DNA of 64,000 bases, taken from IMG/VR virus record IMGVR_UViG_3300045988_085326, positions 64,001-128,000 of that record. The stretch is one strand, 5' to 3'. Numbering within the stretch: the stretch's first letter is position 1; every line of letters begins with the position of its first letter. Both the position numbers and the translations under genes were made by a program. Under the pieces are notes generated by a model, which worked only from the letters and a program-made list of their open reading frames with translations, was not told where the DNA came from and ran no database searches. The DNA is from a virus. Below, piece by piece: positions 5,054 through 57,735 of the stretch.

Positions 5054-7136
5054 CCTCCACTATGAACCAAACTCCACCAATAGCAAGTTTTTGTTGTTGA
5101 GCTGATAATGTAGCATCATCTCTACTAGCTACCATAGTCCAAGAAATTTCGTTATTAAATGTTCCTAAATAATACCAACCTTTGTAATCAGTAGTTCCAG
5201 GTTTATAATTATAATCAAAAGCATAAAATAATTTATTCTCGCCTTCTTCTCCTATAGTCACTATTTTACCATCATACAAAGGATTTGTTAAACCATTCGG
5301 ATATGTATCATTCAGATAACTTAAAGCATTATTTATTGCTTCAATTCCAGGATGTTCAGAAGGTAACACATTGAAACCAATCAAAACTCCTGCATCATCC
5401 TTAATACTTCCTAAATCTAACCAACCATCTTTACCATCATGGATTCTTGTTAATCCATCCTCAGTTAATTTCTTTCTGATATTAGGATTACTATAATAAA
5501 CTAAAAAGTGATAATCTATTTCATCAATAGTAGTAGCTTCTATATAATTTACTGGTTGCTTACTAATAGGAATATCCTCTCCAGTATTATAAATTACATG
5601 GAAAAGATAATCGCTATCTTTAGTTATATCATCATCTATATAAACTTTATCAATAAACTTAATAATGTTATCAATAGCTTCATCATCACCAGTATTATAA
5701 ACTACATGGAATTTATTATCACCTTCATCTGTAATATCATCAATTTTATTAAAATATATATGGTCAATATATTTTAACATATTATAATAAATCAATGGGT
5801 CACCATTATTATACTGAATAGTAATAGTTCCATCATCAGCAATAGAAATATCTCTAACCCATGTCAAAGTTGTTATATAAGGTGGCGTTCCATTATTATA
5901 AGTAACTGTAAAAGTTCCATTCGCACCTAAAGATATCCCAGTTATCCACTGAATTTCATTATCAAAAGTATCATCTGTTCCATCATTATAATTGACTTTA
6001 ACAGTACCATTAGCATACATCTCAATATCTTTAATCCAGCGTAAATGAGTATTAGACAAAATTTCATCTTCTTTTCCGCCAGTATAATGTAAAGTAATTT
6101 TACCATCTTCCGCTATTGAAATACTTTTAACCCATGCTAAATCAGTTTCATAAATAGTTGGATTTCCATCTTTATCTGTACTATGATTATATTGAACAGT
6201 AAAATGTCCATTAGTAGAATCTAATGTAACTTGTTTAATCCACTTTAATAATTTAGTATAAGTATCAGTATTATCATGTGAATAATCAATAACTATAGTT
6301 CCTTCTTCATCAAAACTAATATTATCAATCATATTATAGTCACCTAAAAAAATAGATACTGGTTCTCCATTAGCATCTTTATCATAGTGATAATAGTCAT
6401 AAACTAATACTTCACGTTCATTATCAATATCATCTTGACGTCCTTCATAATCCTGAATTGTCTCATCTGCTTTCATCACTCTAAAATTTTTGAAAGCATC
6501 ACCCTTAATTCCTTTAGGAATATTAAAATGCCACTTCTCATAAAATGGATGAGTTTTATCATCTACTCGTTCTGTTAAATTTTCATTAATAAAATCATCA
6601 GTATCATTACTTCTGTTATAATAAGGACTTACACTTTCCGCAGTAAACTCTTCAACAAGATAAGGAAACTTAAATCCAATATATGCAATCGCGTCCTCAC
6701 CATTTTCACTTCTTACACAACAGCAAGCCCATTCAACTACATCATTAAATTTAACTCCATCCTTACCAGGCACCATACTAACTGGAACAGAATAACTGCC
6801 TTCACTATATCTATTCTCAAATCCTTCTGTCTTTTGTTTCAGTTTAACTTGTTCAATAGTAGTCAACTCTAACATAGGCGCACGTCCAGCTGGTCCAACT
6901 ATAGTTCCAACATAGACAGCTCCACCCATTTCGTTAGTATAATCATACCCTCTACGAAAAACTTTACCATTATCTGGGTCATTTTTATTTTCTGTATTGA
7001 TTAATACATGCTCATCATAGTGAACAGCAGAATAGGTAGGTCCTTTCTTAAAATTCTCCACCATTTCCGCGATTGATGAAAAAGATTTCACTATAATAAA
7101 AGAAAACCCAGGCTTACCACCATAGAAACTTTCCAT
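5040..7136 (-). CDS. tail fibre/spike protein with five tandem ~38-aa beta repeats
   Basis: 698 aa. Repeats such as KWIKQVTLDSTNGHFTVQYN / AWVKSISIAEDGKITLHYTGG / RWIKDIEMYANGTVKVNYNDG / QWITGISLGANGTFTVTYNNG / TWVRDISIADDGTITIQYNNG. Confidence 0.55.
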   Translation of the reverse strand: MESFYGGKPGFSFIIVKSFSSIAEMVENFKKGPTYSAVHYDEHVLINTENKNDPDNGKVFRRGYDYTNEMGGAVYVGTIVGPAGRAPMLELTTIEQVKLKQKTEGFENRYSEGSYSVPVSMVPGKDGVKFNDVVEWACCCVRSENGEDAIAYIGFKFPYLVEEFTAESVSPYYNRSNDTDDFINENLTERVDDKTHPFYEKWHFNIPKGIKGDAFKNFRVMKADETIQDYEGRQDDIDNEREVLVYDYYHYDKDANGEPVSIFLGDYNMIDNISFDEEGTIVIDYSHDNTDTYTKLLKWIKQVTLDSTNGHFTVQYNHSTDKDGNPTIYETDLAWVKSISIAEDGKITLHYTGGKEDEILSNTHLRWIKDIEMYANGTVKVNYNDGTDDTFDNEIQWITGISLGANGTFTVTYNNGTPPYITTLTWVRDISIADDGTITIQYNNGDPLIYYNMLKYIDHIYFNKIDDITDEGDNKFHVVYNTGDDEAIDNIIKFIDKVYIDDDITKDSDYLFHVIYNTGEDIPISKQPVNYIEATTIDEIDYHFLVYYSNPNIRKKLTEDGLTRIHDGKDGWLDLGSIKDDAGVLIGFNVLPSEHPGIEAINNALSYLNDTYPNGLTNPLYDGKIVTIGEEGENKLFYAFDYNYKPGTTDYKGWYYLGTFNNEISWTMVASRDDATLSAQQQKLAIGGVWFIVEGEDD

Positions 7137-46063: not shown

Positions 46064-46311
46064 CTATTCGTTTTTAGATTTTCAAAATGCATTTGGAGAT
46101 TTTTTGGACGAGGCCAAATCATTTTCACAAAGTCAAAAAATTTTTTTCCCGAAATATACCCCGGGGTATTTTTTCTAGTACGTCAGATTCTTGTAGACTT
46201 CTTTCAAGAGCAAGATAAATAGACAGCCCCACATAATAAAGAACTGCGGGAAGTCGTTTAATGAGCATAAGGTTTAGCTATCTTATGCTAACACGCTTAC
46301 TCATAAGAATA

Positions 46312-46378
46312 AACACATTAATGTAATTTAATAATAGATAATTTATTTTATTGTAATTGTAAATTACATTAATGTGTT
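46312..46378. repeat. perfect 19-bp inverted repeat AACACATTAATGTAATTTA...TAAATTACATTAATGTGTT around a 29-nt AT loop; each arm contains the sub-palindrome ACATTAATGT
   Basis: Seen directly. Located in the 490-bp non-coding gap before the first promoter cassette, immediately upstream of the GC hairpin at 46383. Confidence 0.7.
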
Positions 46379-46553
46379 CGCTGGCTCGCGTGCGGTCATG
46401 GCGAGCCGCGATTCTTGTCAAGTAGTAATGTTGTACAATTTTTTTGCCAAATGTTTGTGCATTATTATAATAGATTCTATCCCGAAATGACTTGACACGT
46501 AGAGTGTTATGTGATATAGCATAATTACAGAAAGGGAAAGAGAGGTAACAAGC

Positions 46554-46700
46554 ATGATTACAAAGAAATTTGATTACAAAGGACAGATGATTAACTATTT
46601 CAATAAAGTAAGAAAGAATCCAAATATTAGTGCATGTTATTGTAGTTTCTCTTGTGTTCATGGGTGCTATGTAGTAGAGTACTGTTACAAAGAAAGATAA
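46554..46700 (+). CDS. small Cys-rich protein, 48 aa (not in ORF track)
   Basis: Promoter plus canonical leader GGGAAAGAGAGGTAACAAGCATG. CYCSFSCVHGCYVVEYC. Confidence 0.45.
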   Translation: MITKKFDYKGQMINYFNKVRKNPNISACYCSFSCVHGCYVVEYCYKER

Positions 46701-46804
46701 TCTTTCAACAAAAAAGTCTAATAAAACGCTTGACACACAAAGATATTCATGCTATAATAAATACATAAAGAACAAAGAAAACAACACAAAGAGAGGTTGA
46801 TAAT

Positions 46805-47125
46805 ATGATTAAAGAGTATCAAGTAACACTTATTTGTGAGACAGGACAATACAGACCAGTAAGCGCCATTATTAAGGCAGATGATAAGACTGCGGAAGTC
46901 ATCGGTATTGATGCTTTCAAGCAACAAATCCGCACACAAGGTATTACAAAAATATGCCAAAAAAGGTATTGGGGTAGTTCAGATTTAAAGAGGTATCATT
47001 ATACAAAAGTAAAAATGAGAGAGTATGACAAAGAAAAAATCGAAAAAGAAAATGCAGAACGCTATGAGAAAATAAAGCGGGAACGCGGTTGGATTACCAC
47101 AGACATAGACAAGGGAGAACAATAG
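46805..47125 (+). CDS. hypothetical early protein, 106 aa
   Basis: Promoter TTGACA-17-TATAAT at ~46730 and RBS AAGAGAGG. Confidence 0.55.
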   Translation: MIKEYQVTLICETGQYRPVSAIIKADDKTAEVIGIDAFKQQIRTQGITKICQKRYWGSSDLKRYHYTKVKMREYDKEKIEKENAERYEKIKRERGWITTDIDKGEQ

Positions 47126-47226
47126 TTCTCTCTTTTTTGTCCCTTGTTGATAACGTTAAAAAATTATGGTATAATAATAATGTAAAGAAAAATAAAGACA
47201 ATAGAATAAAGAAAGGAGCAGAACCA

Positions 47227-47328
47227 ATGAAGCTTAGTTTAGACGAACTAACTGCTTTAAAGCTTGTACTTGAGTTCGTATCTGTTAAAGACTTGCTTAT
47301 ATCAGCAATAAATAACTTTGCAGAGTAA
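47227..47328 (+). CDS. small hypothetical protein, 33 aa
   Basis: Promoter TTGATA-17-TATAAT at ~47147 and RBS AAAGGAGCAG. The N-terminal 46 codons of the track ORF lack an RBS. Confidence 0.3.
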   Translation: MKLSLDELTALKLVLEFVSVKDLLISAINNFAE

Positions 47329-47549
47329 GAAGATATTCACTCTAAAGATAATGCAGACTTGTGCTTTAAAGCTATTACTTCATTTCTGAAATAATTTATT
47401 TCGGAGACCGTACACGTTCAAGGTGCGGTCGGTTCACTCCATAGTGGTATACAGCCAGATATTTTTTGCCAAAAAGTCTGGCTTTTCGCTTGACAAAGTT
47501 ATCCTGAAATGCTATAATAAATGTATCAAAGGAAAGAGAGGTAAATACA

Positions 47550-47669
47550 ATGTCATTGATGTATACAAACAAGGAAGCGTTTGAGAGAGTAAAAAGATTC
47601 TTAGAAGTTAATCAGTACTCATTTGAGTTTTCCATTTCAAATGGACAATTTTATATAAAAATTACTTAA
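47550..47669 (+). CDS. small hypothetical protein, 39 aa (not in ORF track)
   Basis: Promoter at ~47489 and leader AAAGGAAAGAGAGGTAAATACAATG. Confidence 0.4.
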   Translation: MSLMYTNKEAFERVKRFLEVNQYSFEFSISNGQFYIKIT

Positions 47670-47675
47670 TAAGGG

Positions 47676-47704
47676 TTGACAAACTACAAAGAACGTGTTA
47701 TACT
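47676..47704 (+). promoter_or_regulatory. early sigma-A-type promoter
   Basis: TTGACA-17-TATACT. The ORF-track TTG start is actually the -35 element. Confidence 0.65.
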
Positions 47705-47735
47705 TAATGTATCAAATGAAAGAGAGGTAAGTAAA

Positions 47736-47906
47736 ATGAATGAGAAGTTTAAAGGTATGATAGATGACATAATAAGAAAGTTTGGTTTTGAGGATATTCA
47801 CACTATTATCTTCTGCGGAATGTGTGAGAGAGCAGATGTTCCTCTCAATTCAATTTATGAAACCTATGATGAATACATGAGTTTAGATATAATGCTCGAT
47901 GAATAA
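47736..47906 (+). CDS. small hypothetical protein, 56 aa
   Basis: ATG after AGAGAGG RBS. Rho-independent terminator at 47893..47919. Confidence 0.5.
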   Translation: MNEKFKGMIDDIIRKFGFEDIHTIIFCGMCERADVPLNSIYETYDEYMSLDIMLDE

Positions 47907-48055
47907 TCGAGCATTTTTTACGTCGCGGCGCGTACGACCCTTGCGCGCCGAATTTGCGCATTATTATATTGTACCACATTTTTCGCTCGCTGTCAATAGA
48001 CAAATTGCACAAAGATTGAATCCCGAAATTGTGCAATATTTTTTTAAAAAAAGTA

Positions 48056-48084
48056 TTGACGTACTCGTACTCACGTGCTATAAT
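48056..48084 (+). promoter_or_regulatory. early sigma-A-type promoter with upstream A-tract
   Basis: AAAAAAAGTATTGACG-17-TATAAT. Confidence 0.65.
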
Positions 48085-48118
48085 GTATTTACAAGGTAAG
48101 GAAAGAGAGGAAAACAAA

Positions 48119-48574
48119 ATGACAAAGGAAACAATGATTAGAAATTATAGAAAATTCAGTGCGGCTGATAGTTATATATTAGGCTTTATTTATAACCATG
48201 AGGTTTATGCGGTAGAGGTTGCGGAGATAATGCCTAGATACATGAGAGTAGAACACGAAAGCAGTAAAAAAGGCGGTTGTGCAAAATTACAGTTGAGATT
48301 GCCGAAAAATTATCAAGAACAGTTAATTAGAAAAGGTGCGGTTGTTATCGGTTCAGAAAATATCTTAAATGGAGAATATAATAAAGGCGTTGAGTTTGAA
48401 AGAGTTATTTCTGAAATGAATGGAATAGCATTTAGAGGTAAAGACAACGAGCCATTTTATAAAGCAGGCGACTTAAATATAAATGGTAAAGAAATACAAA
48501 TAAAATTTAATGGTGCTCAAATTGTAGTAGAAAGAACCTTAAAAAAATTACAAAAAATGCAAAAAAATGCTTGA
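48119..48574 (+). CDS. hypothetical early protein, 151 aa
   Basis: ATG following leader AAGGAAAGAGAGGAAAACAAAATG. Confidence 0.55.
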   Translation: MTKETMIRNYRKFSAADSYILGFIYNHEVYAVEVAEIMPRYMRVEHESSKKGGCAKLQLRLPKNYQEQLIRKGAVVIGSENILNGEYNKGVEFERVISEMNGIAFRGKDNEPFYKAGDLNINGKEIQIKFNGAQIVVERTLKKLQKMQKNA

Positions 48575-48634
48575 CAAACTGATTACCGTATGGTATTATA
48601 ATTATAGAAAGAGAGAGAAAGAGAGGTATTCAAA

Positions 48635-49114
48635 ATGAGAAAAACATTAGTATTCGATATGGACGGAACAATCGCAGACCTTTATGGAGTGAATGGTTGG
48701 TTAGAAAATCTTAGAGAAGAAAACGCAAGACCTTATATAGAGGCAAAACCGCTGTATGATATGGATGTTCTTGCAAGTATCTTAGGACTTTTAAGATTGA
48801 ATGGTTGGACAATAGCAATCACAAGCTGGCTTTCAAAAGAAAGCACAAAAGCCTATGATAAAAAAGTAAGAGAAGCCAAAAAAGAATGGCTTGCAAAATA
48901 TAACTTCCCTTATGATGAAATCCATCTTGTAAAGTATGGCACAACAAAAGCCAACTGCACTAGAAAAAATGGTGGTTTCCAGATTTTAGTAGATGATAAT
49001 GAGGAAGTTCGCAAGAGTTGGCACTTAGGCGATACAATCAACGCAAACGAAAACATCATTGAAAAACTGGTTGACTTACTGGTTGCGGAGTTTATTCATA
49101 CTCCGCAACTTTAA
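48635..49114 (+). CDS. HAD-superfamily 5'(3')-deoxyribonucleotidase-like protein
   Basis: HAD motif I LVFDMDGTIAD at the N-terminus and ILVDDN (motif IV). Size and architecture of the NT5C family. Confidence 0.55.
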   Translation: MRKTLVFDMDGTIADLYGVNGWLENLREENARPYIEAKPLYDMDVLASILGLLRLNGWTIAITSWLSKESTKAYDKKVREAKKEWLAKYNFPYDEIHLVKYGTTKANCTRKNGGFQILVDDNEEVRKSWHLGDTINANENIIEKLVDLLVAEFIHTPQL

Positions 49115-49133
49115 AAATTTTTCAAAAAAAGTA

Positions 49134-49162
49134 TTGACAACGTGCAAATAATTTGTTATACT
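49134..49162 (+). promoter_or_regulatory. early sigma-A-type promoter
   Basis: AAAAAAAGTATTGACA-17-TATACT. Confidence 0.6.
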
Positions 49163-49193
49163 TAATGTATCAAATGAAAGAGAGGAAAACAAT

Positions 49194-49346
49194 ATGACGA
49201 TTGAAAGAAGCAATGATACAAATTATCCTTACACAATAAAAGGCGGTTGGGGAGATAAAGTTTATTGTTCTCTTGATAGTTTAAAAGAATTAAAAAGAGA
49301 AATCAATAAAATTTTAAAAGAGGAAAAAGCTAAAAATCAGAAATGA
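49194..49346 (+). CDS. small hypothetical protein, 50 aa (not in ORF track)
   Basis: Leader AAAGAGAGGAAAACAATATG. Terminator 49326..49363. Confidence 0.45.
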   Translation: MTIERSNDTNYPYTIKGGWGDKVYCSLDSLKELKREINKILKEEKAKNQK

Positions 49347-49806
49347 TTTTTAGCTTTTTTATTGTGTGCGGGCCGCGCACGTTTCTCGCGCGGCCGAAAT
49401 TTCATTATACCATAGTCCTTGAGGTTTTGTCAAGCGTTTTCCTCATAAATACTACACAAAAAGAACTCCCGAAATTTGGTCATTATTACCTATTGATTTT
49501 TAATAAAAATTTTGCTATAATATAGAAGGTAAGGGAAAGAGAAAGCAACAAAAAAGAAATTAAAAAAAGTTGAAAAATCTCTTGACAAACCGCGACACAA
49601 GTGCTATAATAAAGATACAAGATAGGAAAGGGTGTCGGACTTCTACCAAAGTACAGGTAGTGAATTTCTTGAAAAAGAGGTTGATTGCTTAGGAAAAGAA
49701 GTTCAGCTCTTTGAAAACAAAATCCTAAAAAATCTTGAAAAAGTGCTTGACAAGTCACTGTAAACATGGTATAATAAACTTATCAAATGAAAGAGAGGTA
49801 GTAAGT

Positions 49807-49959
49807 ATGAGTAAGAAAGAGTTCCTTAAGAAGTGGAGAAATGATAGAGATTTCCGCTATGACATGAGAAGAAAGGGCATTAAGGTTATTCAGGATAATG
49901 TAATTTTCTTCAACCCTGATGGCTCTGTTCGGGCGATGGCTGGTGCTTACATTCAGTAA
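49807..49959 (+). CDS. small basic protein, 50 aa
   Basis: Promoter at ~49751 and leader AGAGAGGTAGTAAGTATG. Confidence 0.45.
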   Translation: MSKKEFLKKWRNDRDFRYDMRRKGIKVIQDNVIFFNPDGSVRAMAGAYIQ

Positions 49960-50064
49960 GCACCGCAAGAAAAAAAAATAAAAAAACTATTGACAACTAA
50001 ATAAAGAAATGTTATAATAAAGATGTAAAGAAAACAAATAAAAAAAAGAAAGAGGTAATGAATT

Positions 50065-50433
50065 ATGGAAAAGAAAATGACTAAGAAAGAGTGGTTCGCA
50101 GTATTAGCAAGTGTGGTTGAGGCTTCTGAAATGGAGAATAAGACCGAGGCTCTGGCTTTCATCAATCACGAGGTTGAACTGTTAGAGAAGAAGTCCGCAA
50201 AGAGCGGTCAGACCAAGACACAGAAAGAGAATGTCGGCATTATGGAGGAAATCAAGTCCGCACTTGGCGAGGTTGGTAAGGCTGTTACCATTACAGAGTT
50301 GCAGGCGGCTTCCGCTGAAATGGCTGAATATAGCAATCAGAAATTATCCGCTTTGCTGAAAAAGTTGGTTGAGAGTGGCGAGGTTGTAAAGACCACCGAG
50401 AAAAAGAAATCTTACTTCTCCCTTGCGGAGTAG
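50065..50433 (+). CDS. paralog family A member 1: 122-aa protein with C-terminal winged-helix-like segment
   Basis: Promoter at ~49985. 70% identity with 53053..53439, ~50% with 55397..55762. Conserved AKSGQTKTQKEN and SNQKLSAL...TTEKKKSYF. Confidence 0.6.
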   Translation: MEKKMTKKEWFAVLASVVEASEMENKTEALAFINHEVELLEKKSAKSGQTKTQKENVGIMEEIKSALGEVGKAVTITELQAASAEMAEYSNQKLSALLKKLVESGEVVKTTEKKKSYFSLAE

Positions 50434-50634
50434 TAAGCAACCGAAAGGGCAAGACAGAAATGTCTTGTCCTTTTTTGATTTGGCGGCGCGCGGACAATCG
50501 CCCCGCGCCGATTTGCGTGTCAAGTAGTATATTGCATAAAAATTTTGTGCGATTTTTGTGCATTTTGCCTATTGTATTTATCCCGAAATGCTGTTATAAT
50601 GTATTTACAAGGTAAGGAAAGAGAGGTAAACAAA

Positions 50635-51111
50635 ATGACAAACTTATTATTTTTATTTATCATAATGAACGCACTTAATGTAGTAATGCAGACTATTAAA
50701 AGTCTTTGCACTGTAAACTCTGGTAAAACAGTTGCGGCTATTGTAAACGCGGTAGCTTATGGTTTTTATACAGTAATTGTAGTTTACATGAGTTGTGACC
50801 TTCCGCTTTGGGAAAAATCTTTGATTATCGGTCTTTGTAATCTTGTTGGTGTTTACATTGTAAAACTTTTTGAGGAAAAGAACCGCAAAGATAAATTGTG
50901 GAAAGTAGAATTGACAGTTAGAGCAGAAAGAACAGATGTTCTTGCTCGACAGTTAGAGGAACTTGTAATTCCGCATAACTACATTACAAATGTTGGCAAA
51001 TGGACTGTATTTAATATCTATTGTAATACACAAAAGGAAAGTGCTTTTGTTAAGGATTTAGCAATTAAGCACAAAGCAAAATTCTTTGTATCTGAAAGCA
51101 AGCGGTTATAA
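50635..51111 (+). CDS. membrane protein, 158 aa, two N-terminal TM helices plus soluble C-terminal domain
   Basis: ATG after canonical leader. Hydrophobic LLFLFIIMNALNVV and AYGFYTVIVVYM segments. Confidence 0.5.
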   Translation: MTNLLFLFIIMNALNVVMQTIKSLCTVNSGKTVAAIVNAVAYGFYTVIVVYMSCDLPLWEKSLIIGLCNLVGVYIVKLFEEKNRKDKLWKVELTVRAERTDVLARQLEELVIPHNYITNVGKWTVFNIYCNTQKESAFVKDLAIKHKAKFFVSESKRL

Positions 51112-51209
51112 TTACCGCTTGCACGGATAAAAAATTTTAAAAAAGTATTGACAAATAAAAAAGAAAATGATATAATAATTATAGAAAGAAAGAAAGAGAG
51201 GAAAACAAT

Positions 51210-51407
51210 ATGAGAAAATTAGTTTATGTAGTAGGCGGTCAGGAAATTACATCTTACGAAAAGGCTAGAGAAATTCAGCCGAGCGGTCAGCTTCAGATAA
51301 AACTTGATGAAATTCGAGAAGAAGCTAAGGTTAATCCCGAAACGCTGGCAAAGAGACAGGCTTACTTTGCAAGGCGTAGAGCTGAAAAGGCGGTGGCTTC
51401 CAATTAA
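51210..51407 (+). CDS. small hypothetical protein, 65 aa
   Basis: Promoter at ~51150 and RBS AGAGAGG. Confidence 0.5.
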   Translation: MRKLVYVVGGQEITSYEKAREIQPSGQLQIKLDEIREEAKVNPETLAKRQAYFARRRAEKAVASN

Positions 51408-51487
51408 GGAAGCTACCAAATAGGGCTTGACAAATAATCAAAAAAATGGTATTATAATCATAGAAAAAGAAAAGAGAGGTGCTTACT

Positions 51488-51688
51488 ATGAGAATTAATG
51501 TTGAAATGAAATGTCCTTTTTGTGGCTCTACCCATGCAGTTGAAGTAAACCTTGCACAGTTTGAGGCTTGAGAGAATGGCGAACTCATTCAAAACGCAAT
51601 GCCAGACTTATCAGCAACTGAGCGAGAGCAGTTAATTTCTCACATTTGTCCTAAATGTCAAGCAGATTTTTTTGAAGGAGAAGAGTAA
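51488..51688 (+). CDS. Cys4 zinc-ribbon protein split by an in-frame TGA (51569..51571)
   Basis: MRINVEMKCPFCGSTHAVEVNLAQFEA-TGA-ENGELIQNAMPDLSATEREQLISHICPKCQADFFEGEE. The two CxxC pairs lie on either side of the stop. Own promoter at ~51425 and terminator at ~51677..51703. Confidence 0.4.
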
Positions 51689-51706
51689 TCTTCTCCTTTT
51701 TTTGGT

Positions 51707-51733
51707 CGCGCCGCGCACGTTCCTCGCGCGGCG
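51707..51733. repeat. one copy of the recurring extreme-GC hairpin CGCCGCGCACGTTCCTCGCGCGGCG. Similar hairpins at 46383..46410, 47924..47950, 49370..49395, 50483..50510, 53937..53964, 54994..55020 and ~56497..56520
   Basis: 7-8 bp all-GC stems in a ~30% GC genome. Each follows the ordinary terminator of the upstream gene and precedes a TGTCAAG and TCCCGAAAT module and the next promoter. Confidence 0.7.
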
Positions 51734-51828
51734 ATTTTTTCATTATACCATACCGCCGCAAATTTGTCAAGCGAAATGTGAGAAAAAATTGCACAAATCC
51801 GCATCCCGAAATTTGTGCAATTTGTATG

Positions 51829-51857
51829 TTGACTTTTGTATGTAGCGATGCTATAAT
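51829..51857 (+). promoter_or_regulatory. early sigma-A-type promoter preceded by palindromic ATTGCACAAAT...ATTTGTGCAAT site
   Basis: TTGACT-17-TATAAT. The inverted repeat 51788..51822 is centred on TCCCGAAAT. Confidence 0.6.
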
Positions 51858-51891
51858 GTATTTACAAGGTAAGGAAAGCGAGGTAAACAAA

Positions 51892-52068
51892 ATGGCACTT
51901 GACAAGGCAATTATGAGCGGTAAAGAACACCGCAAAATATATAGAGGTAGTAAGAGTATTGATAGGACTTGTCGCAATCATGGTTCTTGTGATTGGTGTC
52001 GTGAAAATCGACAATATAAAAATTTAAAAAAATTGCAAAAAACTCTTGACATGATGAAAGAGGTCTGA
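51892..52068 (+). CDS. small Cys-containing protein, 58 aa
   Basis: Canonical leader AAGGAAAGCGAGGTAAACAAAATG. CRNHGSCDWC. Confidence 0.5.
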   Translation: MALDKAIMSGKEHRKIYRGSKSIDRTCRNHGSCDWCRENRQYKNLKKLQKTLDMMKEV

Positions 52069-52108
52069 TATAATAGTATTACAAGGTAAGGAAAGAGAGG
52101 ATAAAAAA

Positions 52109-52822
52109 ATGCAGAAAGAATATTTTATGGTACTTGATACAGAAACCGCAAACAGTGTAGAACAGCCACTTCCTTATGATATTGGCTATGCTATATGCGA
52201 TAGACAAGGAAATGTTGAAATTGCAAGAAGTTTTGTAGTCGCTGAAATGTTCCTTGACAATAAAGACCTTATGCAGTCCGCATATTTCGCTGAAAAGATT
52301 CCGCAGTATTGGGAAGATATCAAAAGCGGAAAAAGAGAGTTAAAAACTTTCTACAATATCCGCAAACAGTTGAAAGCAGATATGCAAGCCTATGGAGTAA
52401 CCAAAGTTGGGGCTTACAATATGGGCTTTGACAAGAGAGCTTTAAACAATGATACACGCTATATCACAAAGTCTTTCTTGCGGTGGTTCTTCCCTTATGG
52501 CACAGAGTTCTTTTGTATCTGGAATATGGCTTGTAGTGTGATTTTAAACAGACCGAGTTATATCAAATTTGCCCTTGAAAATGGTTTTGTTTCCGAGGCT
52601 GGAAATATTCAGACTTCCGCGGAATGTGCATATAGATATATTACAAAAGACACTGATTTTGTGGAAAGTCATACAGGTTTGGAAGATGTGCTAATTGAAG
52701 TCGCAATTATGGCATACTGTTATAGACAACATAAGCCTTTTGAAAACTCTATCAATTCCGCTTGTTGGCGAAAAGTACAGAGAGCGAGAAAAGAAATGGA
52801 ATTAAAACAAGTGTTCGCTTAG
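52109..52822 (+). CDS. DEDDh-family 3'-5' exonuclease (DnaQ/RNase T-like)
   Basis: Exo I FMVLDTETAN, Exo II YNMGFD, Exo III SHTGLEDV. Confidence 0.65.
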   Translation: MQKEYFMVLDTETANSVEQPLPYDIGYAICDRQGNVEIARSFVVAEMFLDNKDLMQSAYFAEKIPQYWEDIKSGKRELKTFYNIRKQLKADMQAYGVTKVGAYNMGFDKRALNNDTRYITKSFLRWFFPYGTEFFCIWNMACSVILNRPSYIKFALENGFVSEAGNIQTSAECAYRYITKDTDFVESHTGLEDVLIEVAIMAYCYRQHKPFENSINSACWRKVQRARKEMELKQVFA

Positions 52823-53052
52823 GCGAACGCTTGTTCGAGACGTGCACAAAATTTTCAAAAAGTCAAATAAAAAATTTTTAAAAAAACTATTGACAATAAA
52901 AAATAAAAGTGTTATAATAGTATTATCGAAAGGAAAGAGGTTTGAAAAGAGCAAAGAAAAAAAATAAAAAAAACTCTTGACAAACTAAAAACCTTATGAT
53001 ATAATAAATACATAAAGAACAACAAATAAAAATTTTAAGAAAGAAAGAGGTA

Positions 53053-53439
53053 ATGAGCATGGAAAAGAAAATGACTAAGAAAGAGTATTTTGCAGTATTG
53101 GCTGAGGTAGTAGCAAATTCCGACATGGAAAACAAAGAGGGCGCACTTGCCTTTATCGCTCACGAGGTTGAACTTCTTGAAAAGAAGTCCGCAAAGAGCG
53201 GTCAGACTAAAACTCAAAAGGAAAATGCTGAAATCCTTGTAAAGATTAAGACTGAACTTGCAGAGGTTGGCAAGGCTGTTACTATCACTGAACTTCAGGC
53301 GGCTTCTGCTGAAATGGCACAGTACAGTAATCAGAAACTTTCCGCACTCTTAAAGAAACTTGTTGAGAGTGGCGAGGTTGTAAAAACTACTGAAAAGAAA
53401 AAGTCCTACTTTGCAGTAGCTGAAACCGAGGGCGAGTAA
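53053..53439 (+). CDS. paralog family A member 2, 128 aa
   Basis: Tandem promoters at ~52890 and ~52975. Close paralog of 50065..50433. Confidence 0.6.
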   Translation: MSMEKKMTKKEYFAVLAEVVANSDMENKEGALAFIAHEVELLEKKSAKSGQTKTQKENAEILVKIKTELAEVGKAVTITELQAASAEMAQYSNQKLSALLKKLVESGEVVKTTEKKKSYFAVAETEGE

Positions 53440-53560
53440 TCGCCCTCCCCAAAGGGAAAGAAAATAAAAAAAATACTTGACATTCGCCACATTGTCTGAT
53501 ATAATAATCATAGAAAGAGAGGTAAACAACATGGATAAAGAAAAACTTATCAATTAGATA

Positions 53561-53896
53561 ATGAAAGAGTGTGCAGAGGATGGCGAACCTGTCACAAGAG
53601 AAGAAACCGAAGAAATGGCGGAAATGGAATTGAAAGCCAAAAAAGATTGTCGGCGGTATGAGAGCGACAAACGAAAAGTCAAAAAGCCCTCTACAAGAGA
53701 AAAGAAAATTGATACCGAAAAAGCGCGGTTAATGGAACTGTTTAATTACTGTTTGCTTGAACCTAACCGCATTGATGATGAACTTCCTTTCAAAATTGAA
53801 TTTGTGTCAGTAGTTAATAATCAAAAAGAGATTACTTTCAGCATTGGCGAAAATGATTACTCACTTACACTGACAAAACACAGAAAGAAAAAATGA
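53561..53896 (+). CDS. paralog family B member 1, 111 aa, preceded in-frame by an 8-codon mini-ORF (53531..53557, MDKEKLIN-TAG)
   Basis: Promoter at ~53477. The canonical leader ATG is at 53531. A TAG stop comes 3 nt before ATG 53561 in the same frame. C-terminus resembles 55962..56381. Confidence 0.5.
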   Translation: MKECAEDGEPVTREETEEMAEMELKAKKDCRRYESDKRKVKKPSTREKKIDTEKARLMELFNYCLLEPNRIDDELPFKIEFVSVVNNQKEITFSIGENDYSLTLTKHRKKK

Positions 53897-54089
53897 TTTT
53901 AAGCAGGTTTCCTTGTGGGAGCCTGCTTTTTGATTTGGCGGCTCGCATGCGGTTGCCGCGAGCCGAATTTGCACACGTTAGTAATGTTGTACAATTTTTT
54001 ATTCAGATTTTTGTGCATTTTGCCTATTGTATTTATCCCGAAATGCTGTTATAATGTATTTACAAGGTAAGGAAAGAGAGGTAGTTAAA

Positions 54090-54389
54090 ATGAAAGCGAC
54101 TGGTATAGTAAGAAGAGTAGATGATTTAGGAAGAATAGTTATTCCAAGAGATATTCGAAGAATAATGCAAATCAAAGAAAGTGAACCAATGAAGTTTTTT
54201 GTAGATAAAGACGCTATTGTAATAAAAAAGATTGAGACTAATAGTTATACTTTAAGACAGACAGAAGATTGGGTAGAATTATTAGATGAAAAAGGGAAAG
54301 TATTGGCAGAAGGTCATAGTTTAAGACCAGAAGAAATCTTAACAGCACTGAATATTGATTTTGAAGTTGAAGAAGTTGAAGAAATGTAA
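54090..54389 (+). CDS. AbrB/MazE/SpoVT-family swapped-hairpin DNA-binding protein
   Basis: N-terminal MKATGIVRRVDDLGRIVIPRDIRR matches the AbrB-N signature (GIVR.VD.LGR.VIP.E.R). Confidence 0.75.
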   Translation: MKATGIVRRVDDLGRIVIPRDIRRIMQIKESEPMKFFVDKDAIVIKKIETNSYTLRQTEDWVELLDEKGKVLAEGHSLRPEEILTALNIDFEVEEVEEM

Positions 54390-54460
54390 ATTTTTTATTG
54401 ACAATAAACAAAAAGTATGATATAATAATTATAGAAACAAGGAAAGAGAGGAAAAAAAAG

Positions 54461-54712
54461 ATGTTTGTAAGAATCAATTATTCTAATGGCTATTGTGGTT
54501 GTGATGAATCAGAAGTTTTAGAAGTTGAAAATATTGAAGAAGCAGAAGTTTATGCGGCAGAGGGTATTCATGACTATGCTGAACCTTATACTTATGTAGC
54601 TACAGGTTGGGATGAAGGTTTTGAATCTGAGGAAGAAGAAGAAACCTATTATGAAAATTGTACTTTCGATATTGAAGAAATTACAGAAGAGGAATATCAA
54701 GAGGAAAAGTAA
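54461..54712 (+). CDS. highly acidic small protein, 83 aa
   Basis: Promoter at ~54398. About 35% Asp+Glu (ESEEEEETYYENCTFDIEEITEEEYQEEK). Confidence 0.5.
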   Translation: MFVRINYSNGYCGCDESEVLEVENIEEAEVYAAEGIHDYAEPYTYVATGWDEGFESEEEEETYYENCTFDIEEITEEEYQEEK

Positions 54713-54779
54713 TTTTTCTCTTGACAAACTCAAAAGAATCTGTTAGAATAAATATATCAAGAGAAAAAGAGGTAAAAGA

Positions 54780-54965
54780 ATGGAAGAACTGAAAGCCTTA
54801 GATATGATTTGGATAGTTATTAACCCTGATGGAACTTACGCGGGAACACCTTGCCTTACTTGGGAAGAAGCGAGAGAGCTTGTTGCACAGAAAGAAGGCA
54901 GGAGAGTTTTCAATCTTGACCCCAATGAAGAAGATGTAACAGAAAATGAAAATGGTTTGATTTAA
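54780..54965 (+). CDS. small hypothetical protein, 61 aa
   Basis: Promoter at ~54720. Terminator at 54966..54990. Confidence 0.45.
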   Translation: MEELKALDMIWIVINPDGTYAGTPCLTWEEARELVAQKEGRRVFNLDPNEEDVTENENGLI

Positions 54966-55396
54966 GAGGGCGCAAAGCCCTCTTTTTATTTGTCGCGCCG
55001 CGCACGTCCCTTGCGCGGCGATTTTGCCTTAACCTTTCATTATACCAAATTTTTTGCTAGATGTCAAGGGGTAAAAATAACTAAATCTAATTCCCGAAAT
55101 TTGTGCAATATTTCCTATTGATTTTTAATAAAAATTTTGCTATAATAAATACATAAAGAAAAGGAAATAAGTAGTGACTGTCAAGGCACTAAAAAATTCC
55201 AAAAAAAATAAAAAAAAAGTCTTGACAAATAAAAATGCTTATGTTATAATAAATACATAAGAAAGAGATAAAACAGAAAACAAGCACTGAAAAAACTCTT
55301 AAAAAAAAATAAAAAAAATGCTTGACAAGAAAAACTGAATATGGTATAATAAAGATGTAAAGAAAAACAAACAAAGAAAGGTAAGAGGTGTTGAGT

Positions 55397-55762
55397 ATGG
55401 CAGAAAAGAGAATTACAAAGAAAGAGTATTTTGCAATGGTAGCAGGTGTTGTTGAGCAGGTTAATCCTACAAACAAGGAAGAGTTGTTGGCTTTTATCAA
55501 CCATGAGGTTGAGTTGCTGGAAAAGAAGTCTGCTAAGTCTGGACAGACTAAGACACAGAAAGAGAATGTCGGCATTATGGAAACTATTTCTGAGGTACTT
55601 GCTGATATGGGTAAGCCTGTAACTATCACTGAACTGATGAAAGATGAGCGGTTGTCCGCATACTCTAATCAGAAGTTGTCCGCACTGGTTAGACAGATGC
55701 CTAATGTGATTAAAACTACAGAGAAAAAGAAGTCTTACTTCTCTCTTGTAGACACAGAGTAG
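55397..55762 (+). CDS. paralog family A member 3, ~121 aa
   Basis: Three stacked promoters at ~55099, ~55222, ~55319. Conserved LAFINHEVELLEKKSAKSGQTKTQKENVGIME and SNQKLSAL...TTEKKKSYFSL. Confidence 0.6.
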   Translation: MAEKRITKKEYFAMVAGVVEQVNPTNKEELLAFINHEVELLEKKSAKSGQTKTQKENVGIMETISEVLADMGKPVTITELMKDERLSAYSNQKLSALVRQMPNVIKTTEKKKSYFSLVDTE

Positions 55763-55961
55763 GCGAACATCTGTTCGGGGTGGAGAGGCTCAAATCCTCT
55801 CCCTACTCCTCAAAGACATTTTGAAAATCCTCCTTTCTATGTGGTGTGGGGCTTTTGCCCCATTCCACAAACCTTTTAAAAGATTTTCAAAAAAACTATT
55901 GACATTATAAAAATTTTTTGTTATAATTATTTTAGAAAGTTAAGAAAGAGAGGTTTTCAGT

Positions 55962-56381
55962 ATGAAATACAATTTGAATGGTAAAAATATCGATATTCCA
56001 GACGCTGATATTGAGTGGTCAATGAAAAGCCTTGAATTGACAAAAGAAGAAGCAATTCAGATGTGGCTTGAAGATGAAGGCTATCTCAGAAATGAAGAAC
56101 AAGAGGAACTGGAACGCAAGGCAAAGGAAAACCGCATTACAGCAACTATCCATCAGGCAAGCGCAAAAGACCCTCATAAAAAGACACAAAAAGAGCGGGT
56201 TCGCAAGGAAAATCCGACAAAAGAAATGGTAATTCGCGAAATTGCGGCACTTTTACCTAAATTTGCGGAAGATATTGAGATTTTGAATGTCGGAAAGCTG
56301 ATTTCTTTCAGAATTGGAGAGGAAAAGTACGAAATTGACTTAAAACAGAAAAGAAAACCGAAAGAAACCGCTAAAAAGTAG
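55962..56381 (+). CDS. paralog family B member 2, 139 aa
   Basis: Promoter at ~55896. C-terminus ISFRIGEEKYEIDLKQKRKPK parallels ITFSIGENDYSLTLTKHRKKK of 53561..53896. Confidence 0.5.
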   Translation: MKYNLNGKNIDIPDADIEWSMKSLELTKEEAIQMWLEDEGYLRNEEQEELERKAKENRITATIHQASAKDPHKKTQKERVRKENPTKEMVIREIAALLPKFAEDIEILNVGKLISFRIGEEKYEIDLKQKRKPKETAKK

Positions 56382-56931
56382 CGGTTTCCACATAATTTTC
56401 AGATAATTTGGCGGTTTTGGGCAGTTTTCACAAGAAAACTGCTCTTTTTTGTGCATTTTTTCTACTTGACAACAATATAATTATGTGCTATAATTGTCGG
56501 CGCGTCGCCGATGGTGATGCGCCGAATCCGCCTCCCCGCACGCCATATGCAATTTTTTCGTAGATGTTTGAAATCTATCATCATTTCCCCAGTTTCCCGA
56601 AAATGCCCCAGTCCAATGTATCATATGGCCGCGCCCGCCGCATGTTTGAAAATTCAAAAAATTTATAGTATAATATTTATATAAAATGAAGGAAAATATA
56701 TAAATTTGGCAGTCCATCTAAAATCTTAATACATTCATTTACTTTTATCACTGCCGCCAACATTTTTACATAAAGCCCCTGCCGCAATAAAATTGCTTAA
56801 ATACAGTTTACTCAATCATTTAAACGGAGTTGTCGGAGACACTTGAAAATTCAAAAAATTTATAGTATAATATTTATATAAAATGAAGGAAAGAACAAAA
56901 GAAATAAATCAACGATAGGAGATTATAATTT

Positions 56932-57399: not shown

Positions 57400-57500
57400 G
57401 GGGTCTCTTTTTTCTTGATATATGCACCTTGAAAACGGAATACGGTAGACGATACAGGTCTGGTCCTGGTCGCATATCTACTATTACAAATTTTTCTTCC

Positions 57501-57652
57501 TTCATTAAAATTATTTACAAATCTTCACTTCTTCACTTCTTCATTAAAATTATTTACAAATTTTTCTTCCTTCATTAAAATTATTTACAAATTTTTCTTT
57601 CTTCATTAAAATTATTTACAAATCTTCACTCCTTCATTAAAATTATCCAAAT
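57501..57652. repeat. iteron-like array: five direct copies of TTCATTAAAATTATTTACAAAT at ~31-bp spacing (first spacing 39 bp)
   Basis: Copies at 57501, 57540, 57571, 57602 and 57633 (last copy degenerate). Spacers are short T/C-rich (TTTTCTTCC / CTTCACTCC). Lies between convergent genes. Confidence 0.8.
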
Positions 57653-57735
57653 TTCTTCATTTCCTCATTTCCGCACAAGAGCAAAGGAAAATATAAACTC
57701 CTTCGCCCTCACACATAAATTCTACTCTTCACCAT

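Follow-up and report, generated by a model that had tools for sequence, protein, structure and literature searches.

The palindrome at positions 51787-51822 of a 64,000-nucleotide stretch of viral DNA (positions 64,001 to 128,000 of IMG/VR virus record IMGVR_UViG_3300045988_085326, hereafter the window) raises the question of whether its arms form one symmetric operator or serve two separate promoters. A preliminary description of the window had taken it, together with a second copy at 48004-48037, as a family of binding sites for a dimeric regulator with TCCCGAAAT as the palindrome's core. We favor, at a probability of roughly 60%, reading the arms as two oriented promoter-upstream boxes, one for each of two back-to-back promoters in a composite regulatory cassette, at which a putative factor would act in phase with RNA polymerase. 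Part of the earlier proposal is retained, as the sites do form a recurring family whose rigid geometry favors protein binding over an RNA or DNA hairpin, while its dimeric side fits poorly with each arm being tied to its own promoter and with 42 of 187 box-bearing promoters being unpaired. The boxes are read as candidate protein-binding or RNA-polymerase-contacting DNA.

The palindrome and its cassette

The window letters at 51787-51822, AATTGCACAAAT-ccgca-TCCCGAAAT-TTGTGCAATT, are as first described, and the perfect inverted repeat is 13 bp long with a 12-nt gap (AAATTGCACAAAT at 51786-51798 and ATTTGTGCAATTT at 51811-51823), so the palindrome is real and far beyond chance. The second site was confirmed as well, with ATTGCACAA at 48004-48012 and TCCCGAAAT at 48021-48029 overlapping TTGTGCAAT at 48029-48037. 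Half-sites listed earlier all exist, though some coordinates were a few bases off: TTGTGCAAT is located at 55101 and TTTGTGCAT at 54010, while TTGTGCGAT lies at 50545 and TTGTGCATT at 50556 (previously 50548), and TTGTGCATT also at 46455 (previously 46457). What had been overlooked is that 46431/46455, 50532/50556, and 53987/54011 are true box pairs with 24-bp spacing.

These sites lie in a region (~44.3-57.4 kb) of small + strand genes, each behind a near-perfect sigma-A type promoter, which is a typical early region. Exact matches to TCCCGAAAT number eight in the window, all on the + strand and all within 46147-55100, against our own arithmetic expectation of ~0.5 for a random 9-mer per 64 kb on both strands. 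Alignment of these eight loci placed the palindrome at the centre of a ~200-bp intergenic cassette present in eight copies between 46.4 and 56.6 kb, all sharing one orientation, with parts in the order terminator of the upstream gene, G+C hairpin, a minus-strand promoter P(-), left box TTGCACAA, TCCCGAAAT, right box TTGTGCAA, a plus-strand promoter P(+), and a purine-rich leader. At 51.8 kb the parts are the following.

51674-51699, + strand: intrinsic terminator of the upstream early gene and left edge of the cassette (terminator scan: 11-pair stem, then a T run)
51709-51733, + strand: G+C-rich hairpin CGCCGCGC-N9-GCGCGGCG, folding at -17 to -25 kcal/mol in every cassette
51742-51770, - strand: predicted promoter P(-), TTGACA-17-TGgTATAAT, a 12/12 match with TG, directed leftwards, into the G+C hairpin and the upstream gene's 3' end
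51786-51798, - strand: left arm AAATTGCACAAAT, a box (TTGTGCAA on the minus strand) with its core at 51789-51796, 18 bp upstream of the P(-) -35
51804-51812, + strand: TCCCGAAAT, an oriented element distinct from the boxes and confined to gene promoters
51811-51823, + strand: right arm ATTTGTGCAATTT, a box with its core at 51813-51820, 8 bp upstream of the P(+) -35
51829-51857, + strand: predicted early promoter P(+), TTGACT-17-TGcTATAAT
51858-51891, + strand: purine-rich leader GTATTTACAAGGTAAGGAAAGCGAGG, running to the start codon at 51892 and conserved in L150, a ~85% identical relative that supplied orthologous modules

P(-), which the preliminary description had missed, is a minus-strand consensus promoter in four of the eight copies, matching 11-12 of the 12 positions of TTGACA-17-TGnTATAAT; its RNA would, judging by position, be antisense to the upstream unit at its 3' end. 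The copies at 46480, 50581, and 54036 are of a short type, in which the P(-) -10 is missing, the box pair is kept at 24 bp, and TCCCGAAAT lies beside or within the spacer of the + promoter.

Recurrence of the site near early promoters was upheld by a weight matrix trained solely on other phages and then scanned over the window: at a cut-off score of at least 13, nine of the eleven best matches fell within 46.4-56.5 kb, and the remaining ones lay within coding sequence with no promoter downstream. That the site is a cis element beside early promoters is likewise borne out, and the element is also under selection, as the comparisons below indicate.

Boxes phased to back-to-back promoters

The main evidence comes from 984 non-redundant sigma-A-like promoters collected from the family loci. 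Upstream of their -35, a box in the TTGTGCAA orientation stood at a gap of 8-9 bp in 130 cases, of 18-19 bp in 49, and of 28-29 bp in five, and almost never elsewhere, while the reverse orientation occurred at 8-9 bp in just nine cases, so that 94% of boxes share one orientation. Fixed orientation and helical phasing to the -35, as expected of a promoter-upstream element, were thus both found in this set, and the promoter-linked boxes have the consensus aAaTTTGTGCAAtTTgcCtaTTGACA. Both full sites in the window follow this pattern, with gaps at 51.8 kb of 8 bp (right arm to P(+)) and 18 bp (left arm to P(-)), and at 48.0 kb of 19 and 8 bp, respectively.

The modules were also located by a non-circular re-search that was blind to the palindrome, using the P(-) pattern alone and keeping matches with an adjoining G+C-rich segment. 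This yielded 84 anchors, among which 49 non-redundant modules from 27 loci have the right box. In 48 of these 49 the right box starts 42±1 bp from the P(-) -35, and TCCC starts 33 bp from it. Left and right boxes stand 23/24 bp apart in 20 modules and 34 bp apart in 17, with no other distance, the left arm occupying two registers 10 bp apart with all other parts fixed; over all family loci, box pairs again stand at 24 bp (n=44) or 34 bp (n=32) and at almost nothing else. The right box lies 7-10 bp from the P(+) -35 in 31 modules, 17-19 bp in 11, 24 bp in one, and 28 bp in two. Within the box, positions T0, G2, T3, and A6 are invariant (49/49), with G4 in 40/49 and C5 in 44/49, and the inter-box spacer is conserved in length, not in sequence. 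Comparison with four orthologous L150 modules gave the same picture at closer range: TCCC, box, linker, and -35 are 100% identical while the promoter spacers vary, and the P(-) hexamers are conserved while their spacer varies.

Pairing is frequent but not obligatory, since 42 (~22%) of the 187 box-bearing promoters have no partner; another 111 have one at 24/34 bp and 34 have a weak one, and at control offsets a partner with at most two mismatches was found in 1/187. Single-box promoters typically come straight after a terminator, and some + strand ones fire into a G+C hairpin (e.g., 56449-56494). Box-bearing gene promoters more commonly have an imperfect -35 (27/80 vs 51/399; Fisher p = 2e-5), and hairpin-type box promoters have an almost always perfect one. 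Separately, a variant box, TTGGTCAT, follows TCCCGAAAT at 49467-49505 in the window and looks like a conserved variant rather than decay, since it is identical in L150 and in a second relative (L021).

TCCCGAAAT is a separate oriented element, independent of the boxes. It had been taken for the core of the palindrome, yet the dyad centre falls on the first base of TCCC, with TCCCGAAAT overlapping the right arm, so that it is not a symmetric core, and it also occurs inside the -35/-10 spacer (50581 and 54036 in the window; examples from ~10 different contigs of relatives). It is restricted to gene-type promoters (38/116 vs 0/71 of the hairpin type), and always follows the promoter's orientation. 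Counted from the -35 hexamer, its start falls at -25 to -27 or -35, adjoining the box, or at +9, within the spacer. The CC of TCCC is kept in 42-47 of the 49 modules from other phages. Judged by its sequence and placement, TCCCGAAAT most plausibly binds another regulator, and its spacer position suggests a repressor.

As a mechanism, we propose that the box aAaTTTGTGCAAt, placed 8-9 bp or one or two turns further (18-19 or 28-29 bp) upstream of a sigma-A type -35 and hence centred near -47.5 or -57.5, would bind a sequence-specific factor whose action is in helical phase with RNA polymerase at the adjacent -35. Boxes would form an inverted repeat at exactly 24 or 34 bp because P(-) and P(+) lie back to back, and paired boxes would probably be bound cooperatively. 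In a cassette that separates small early-gene units, one factor could then determine how much transcription is sense and early, from P(+), and how much is antisense or acts as a roadblock, from P(-), by a logic like that of phage phi29 protein p4, helping at the somewhat weaker P(+) and over-stabilising or blocking polymerase at the perfect-consensus P(-). In phi29, p4 sites lie between the divergent early A2b/A2c and late A3 promoters, and p4 bound upstream contacts RNA polymerase, activating a weak promoter and repressing strong ones. Both systems place inverted-repeat arms ~1.5-2.5 helical turns apart between back-to-back promoters; they differ in that there is no sequence similarity (p4 arms are CTTTTT / AAAATG) and that both promoters here are sigma-A consensus-like, one of them antisense to early genes; a p4 homologue was not encountered, no search aimed at one having been made.

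Further copies and related sites in the window are listed below.

~46378-46411, 47926-47950, 49371-49395, 50484-50510, 53939-53965, 54996-55020, and 56497-56525: other G+C hairpins
47968-47996, 49404-49433, and 55039-55067, - strand: other P(-) copies
46480, 48021, 49467, 50581, 54036, and 55092: other TCCCGAAAT copies, with a variant, TCCCGAAAA, at 56595
48004-48037: second full site, with the left box at 48005-48012 (8 bp from the -35 of P(-) 47996-47968), TCCCGAAAT at 48021-48029, and the right box at 48029-48036 (19 bp from the -35 of P(+) 48056-48084)
46431-46462: short-type cassette with boxes TTGTACAA at 46431 and TTGTGCAT at 46455, 24 bp apart, and TCCCGAAAT at 46480, 3 nt before a -35
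50532-50600: short-type cassette with boxes TTGCATAA at 50532, TTGTGCGA at 50545, and TTGTGCAT at 50556, then TTGTAT-tta-TCCCGAAAT-gcTGtTATAAT (TCCC within the spacer)
53987-54055: short-type cassette before an AbrB-like gene, with boxes TTGTACAA at 53987 and TTGTGCAT at 54011, and TCCCGAAAT at 54036 within the promoter spacer
55092-55146, + strand: TCCCGAAAT at 55092 and a single box TTGTGCAA at 55101, 9 bp before P(+) TTGATT-17-TATAAT, which leads a tandem array of three promoters preceding the family A gene at 55388
56449-56494, + strand: single box TTGTGCAT at 56449, 9 bp before a consensus promoter (56466-56494) that fires straight into the G+C hairpin at 56497-56525

Candidate factors and competing explanations

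Two kinds of encoded protein had been put forward as regulators of these sites. The AbrB-like protein (54090-54389) is a real AbrB-domain (AbrB/SpoVT) protein, but we downgraded it as the box binder because of its phage distribution: it was detected in 2/34 family loci, themselves partial, and is missing from the syntenic region of L150, where the boxes are kept. The gene itself looks like an accessory unit, with an unrelated 49-amino-acid gene standing behind the same cassette in L150 (8366-8515). Family A comprises three paralogues of 122-128 amino acids (50065-50433, 53053-53439, and 55388-55762), and its assignment as winged helix-turn-helix (HTH) proteins agrees with an AlphaFold model (mean pLDDT, the predicted local distance difference test, 84.5) with a C-terminal winged helix and with Foldseek matches to ArsR/MarR/HxlR/Z-alpha folds at a modest E of ~1e-2. 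Sequence searches of Pfam, PHROGs, NCBIfam, and PDB returned no function for it, the matches (phrog_19455, weaker phrog_30233, and sub-threshold Pfam DUF5799) all being of unknown function; more than 1500 homologues exist in a metagenome protein collection. It is the commonest gene downstream of the modules, stands behind 2-4 tandem promoters, and co-occurs with the cassette in 22/34 loci and in gut phage Phass-1, while it is absent from Enterocloster phage PMBT24, which also lacks box promoters. These points are suggestive, and together with the modelled fold they make family A the best encoded candidates for the box factor, better than the AbrB-like protein. Going further, a dedicated phage-encoded factor expressed at a high level (possibly the winged-helix family A proteins) might recognise the boxes, dock onto host RNA polymerase from a phase-locked site near -47/-57, and switch early units from sense to antisense P(-) transcription, a specific scenario that we regard as speculative and on balance unlikely; if true, the switch to P(-) would amount to early shut-off via a conserved antisense-promoter cassette in a large uncultured clade of gut/rumen Clostridia phages.

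Several points weigh against reading the arms as two oriented boxes. All promoters considered here are consensus predictions of the sigma-A type; duplication of promoter cassettes from a common ancestor could explain part of the constant spacing, the 8-bp linker between box and -35 being itself partly conserved; and family A co-occurs with the cassette no more specifically than two other early genes do. The strict 24/34-bp box distance fits a single symmetric complex equally well, and short-type cassettes without the P(-) -10 retain the left box (46431, 50532, and 53987, and in L150), so that these two observations would make the earlier picture incomplete rather than wrong. That picture is a classical symmetric operator, in which a dimeric or tetrameric repressor or activator would bind TTGCACAA-N16/26-TTGTGCAA as a unit to control the promoters on either side, and single boxes would be degenerate or of low affinity. 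Besides the confined distance and the persistent left boxes, it draws on the 145/187 box promoters that have a partner with at most two mismatches and on weak covariation at outer arm positions (z = 1.9, p = 0.04, in a permutation test on 37 arm pairs in which the core was without compensation). We consider it doubtful: the 42/187 promoters right after terminators are truly single, the left arm moves between two registers 10 bp apart while the rest is fixed, and symmetry requires neither the 94% orientation bias nor the phase-locking of each box to its own -35. A centre-to-centre distance of 24-34 bp also far exceeds that of an ordinary HTH dimer, as is well established, and the ~10-11 bp centre-to-centre spacing of lambda/434/LexA-type half-sites was not found, the arms standing 24 or 34 bp apart start to start. 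The reverse economy, in which no dedicated factor exists and host RNA polymerase reads the box directly through the alpha subunit's C-terminal domain or sigma region 4 as an unusual UP-like element that raises promoter strength, also weighs against the two-box reading with its factor. Orientation, position, and 10-bp phasing are properties of UP elements, and the box stands at -44 to -51 or one turn further, in fixed orientation, with 10-bp phasing and A/T-rich flanks. The specific G/C positions (G2, G4, and C5) and the adjoining CCC are nonetheless unlike A-tract UP elements, ~20 other consensus early promoters in the region use plain A-tracts (families D1 and D2), the box in the 18-bp class lies upstream of such an A-tract, and the paired 24/34-bp geometry is left unexplained, making this option improbable in our view.

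Two further explanations make the arms something other than a binding site. Pairing of the arms as an RNA hairpin or DNA cruciform, whose loop would hold TCCCGAAAT and which would serve in attenuation, in processing, or as a structural signal, would account for the predicted fold of -13.6 kcal/mol on the + strand and -16.6 on the - strand (z -4.8 and -5.4) and for paired changes in a few modules (e.g., ATGCACGAAT / ATTCGTGCAT in relative L097), and a + promoter that precedes the G+C hairpin in some relatives would carry transcription across the site. We rejected such a structure as highly improbable because the core shows no compensation, with TAGTGCAA facing an unchanged TTGCACAA in five cases, ATTGTACAAAT in an L150 orthologue whose right arm is unchanged, and the window pair TTGCATAA / TTGTGCAT uncompensated, and because most cassettes place the site upstream of both divergent promoters, hence transcribed from neither; single boxes are also common, and an Rfam scan returned sub-threshold chance matches only. 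The cassette could instead be mainly a recombination substrate that swaps early-gene units, as in the PeSL (promoter-early stem-loop) cassettes discussed below, with boxes conserved as homology. Genes 46554, 50635, and 54090, directly behind short-type cassettes, have no homologue in the L150 syntenic region, homology with L150 stops at the start codon, after the conserved leader, and the eight cassettes are same-orientation repeats. Recombination would, however, homogenise tracts rather than leave 8-9-bp islands between unconserved spacers of fixed length, and it is compatible with a regulatory role of the boxes without substituting for it, so that we consider it distinctly improbable as the main explanation. 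Known motifs were also compared with the box. The Spo0A box is TGTCGAA; it was rejected since it needs C4 and G5, where the box has G (40/49) and C (44/49). CodY, PurBox, Rex, the DnaA box, sigma-54, and an alternative -35/-10 pair, compared from general knowledge of these motifs, mismatch at invariant positions or in spacing.

Relatives, known systems, and the wider early region

The window comes from a large siphophage (~145 kb, 31% G+C) with close relatives on 141-149 kb contigs, and its host is probably a Clostridia. An unannotated human-gut phage record has a terminase 68% identical to the one encoded here; identity is ~45% with the terminases of Enterococcus phages H1 and EF1, Geobacillus phage E3, and gut phage Phass-1, and 34-36% with those of SPbeta-type phages. 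The cassette was found in ~30 IMG/VR contigs of 130-200 kb phages as well as in the stop-codon-recoding Phass-1, where a composite lies at 128909-128968. Independently, the 18-mer TCCCGAAATTTGTGCAAT is present in 16 IMG/VR contigs, most of them 90-200 kb long, where the parts are arranged alike, and P(-) is present in ~13 of the 16 modules located through it. Matches of the 18-mer to bacterial genomes were mostly chance ones in unrelated phyla, with three contigs of rumen metagenome-assembled genomes related by source or taxon labels only (uncultured rumen bacterium, Clostridia bacterium, and Ruminococcus sp.), which do not identify the host. A scan of PMBT24, an isolated relative that might have served as an experimental model, revealed neither box promoters nor a family A gene; among GenBank phages, megablast with the 10-kb early region gave no match, and distant blastn with the cassette matched solely 60 nt in Phass-1 and the leader in an Enterococcus phage. 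Literature searches with the motif strings returned primers and unrelated items only, and the words promoter and repeat are absent from the text of the Phass-1 paper. In Phass-1 (L135, OQ749652), 1.1 kb annotated as gene-free (5600-6740) contains a tRNA-like/structured segment, several boxes, and a cassette, along with three tandem promoters followed by an unannotated open reading frame from ~6379.

All kinds of parts in the cassette are already known, and no principle is overturned. Class I activator sites, e.g., those of CRP at -61.5 / -71.5, and UP elements resemble the boxes in lying upstream of the -35 on one helix face and tolerating displacement by whole turns, and the boxes differ from them in their centre (~-47.5 / -57.5) and their specific G/C positions. 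In its overall make-up, the cassette is similar to the PeSL cassettes of T4-like myophages, in which a strong early promoter and a G+C stem-loop are repeated in plastic regions and take part in modular shuffling (Arbiol et al. 2010, PMC2839356; Comeau et al. 2014, PMC4122927). In both, compact composite motifs recur many times among small early genes that are not conserved, a G+C-rich stem-loop is joined to a strong early promoter of sigma-70 type (found here in the eight window copies), and the cassettes bound gene-content differences between close relatives; in the one genome pair compared here, L150 has other sequence in place of genes 46554, 50635, and 54090, and the breakpoints fall at the conserved leader. 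The two differ in host phylum, in phage type, and in the larger size of the cassette here (~200 bp), and the divergent consensus promoter, phase-locked upstream box, and TCCC element have no counterpart in the PeSL section consulted. A further parallel is the SPbeta repeated element (SPBRE), which is bound by the master repressor MrpR/YopR and was initially an in silico prediction of a regulator site (Kohm et al. 2023, PMC10516654). It, too, is short and recurs in ~10 promoter regions, in a large Firmicute siphophage whose terminase is related. Derived from seven SPbeta promoter regions, SPBRE reads caaatAcAAAaAATATGTATAT and overlaps the core promoter; with no similarity to TTTGTGCAA or TCCCGAAAT it was rejected as a homologous element and is an analogy only. 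Within the 64-kb window, which covers part of the ~145-kb genome, tblastn found no match to MrpR, and no YonO homologue was present.

The G+C hairpin varies in sequence and keeps its pairing, with reciprocal C/G swaps in both arms relative to L150. Across the 49 modules its RNA is more stable as + strand (mean -21.4 vs -19.7 kcal/mol for the - strand; 32 vs 16 modules, p ~0.001; G-U pairs 61 vs 27), so it seems to be selected on the early-gene strand. It seems to be a second terminator, a 3' stabiliser, or, where a + promoter precedes it, a 5' hairpin. In three relatives (L002, L003, and L004) a + strand consensus promoter faces P(-) across the hairpin, with the -10 elements ~38 nt apart. The leader GTATTTACAAGGTAAGGAAAGAGAGG is nearly identical before five genes (48085-48118, 50601-50634, 51858-51891, 52075-52108, and 54056-54089), spans from the -10 to the start codon, and is conserved in other phages, and homology with L150 breaks there; it may be a 5' stabiliser, a translation enhancer, or a recombination joint.

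Elsewhere in the early region, 46700-56000 holds more than 20 further consensus promoters (TTGACA-17-TGnTATAAT) with A-tract upstream regions, and tandem promoters, often 2-4 per gene, stand at 49493/49582/49747/49990, 52890/52977, and 55118/55222/55322. Directly before the first G+C hairpin lies a perfect 19-nt inverted repeat (AACACATTAATGTAATTTA) at 46312-46330 / 46360-46378 with a 29-nt gap, and two 50-nt promoter regions (TTGAAA-17-TATAAT) at 56646-56695 / 56843-56892, 197 nt apart, are 100% identical. Where the + strand early genes meet minus-strand genes, five head-to-tail 31-nt units (TTACAAATTTTTCTTCCTTCATTAAAATTAT) occupy 57484-57667, each resembling a weak TTTACA-17-TAAAAT promoter, and the array could be one of iterons or of promoters.

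If the reading of the arms as promoter-phased boxes is right, one promoter grammar, made up of a phased oriented upstream box, TCCC as a second site, and, at the 3' ends of early units, a G+C hairpin together with an antisense consensus promoter, would be common to a widespread clade of 130-200-kb gut/rumen phages, including Phass-1, that is known almost only from metagenomes. It would supply a sequence signature for early regions and promoters in such contigs and a small set of testable candidate regulators. It would also carry the PeSL concept, in which promoter/stem-loop cassettes are mobile, beyond the T4-like phages of Gram-negative hosts to siphophages of Firmicutes.

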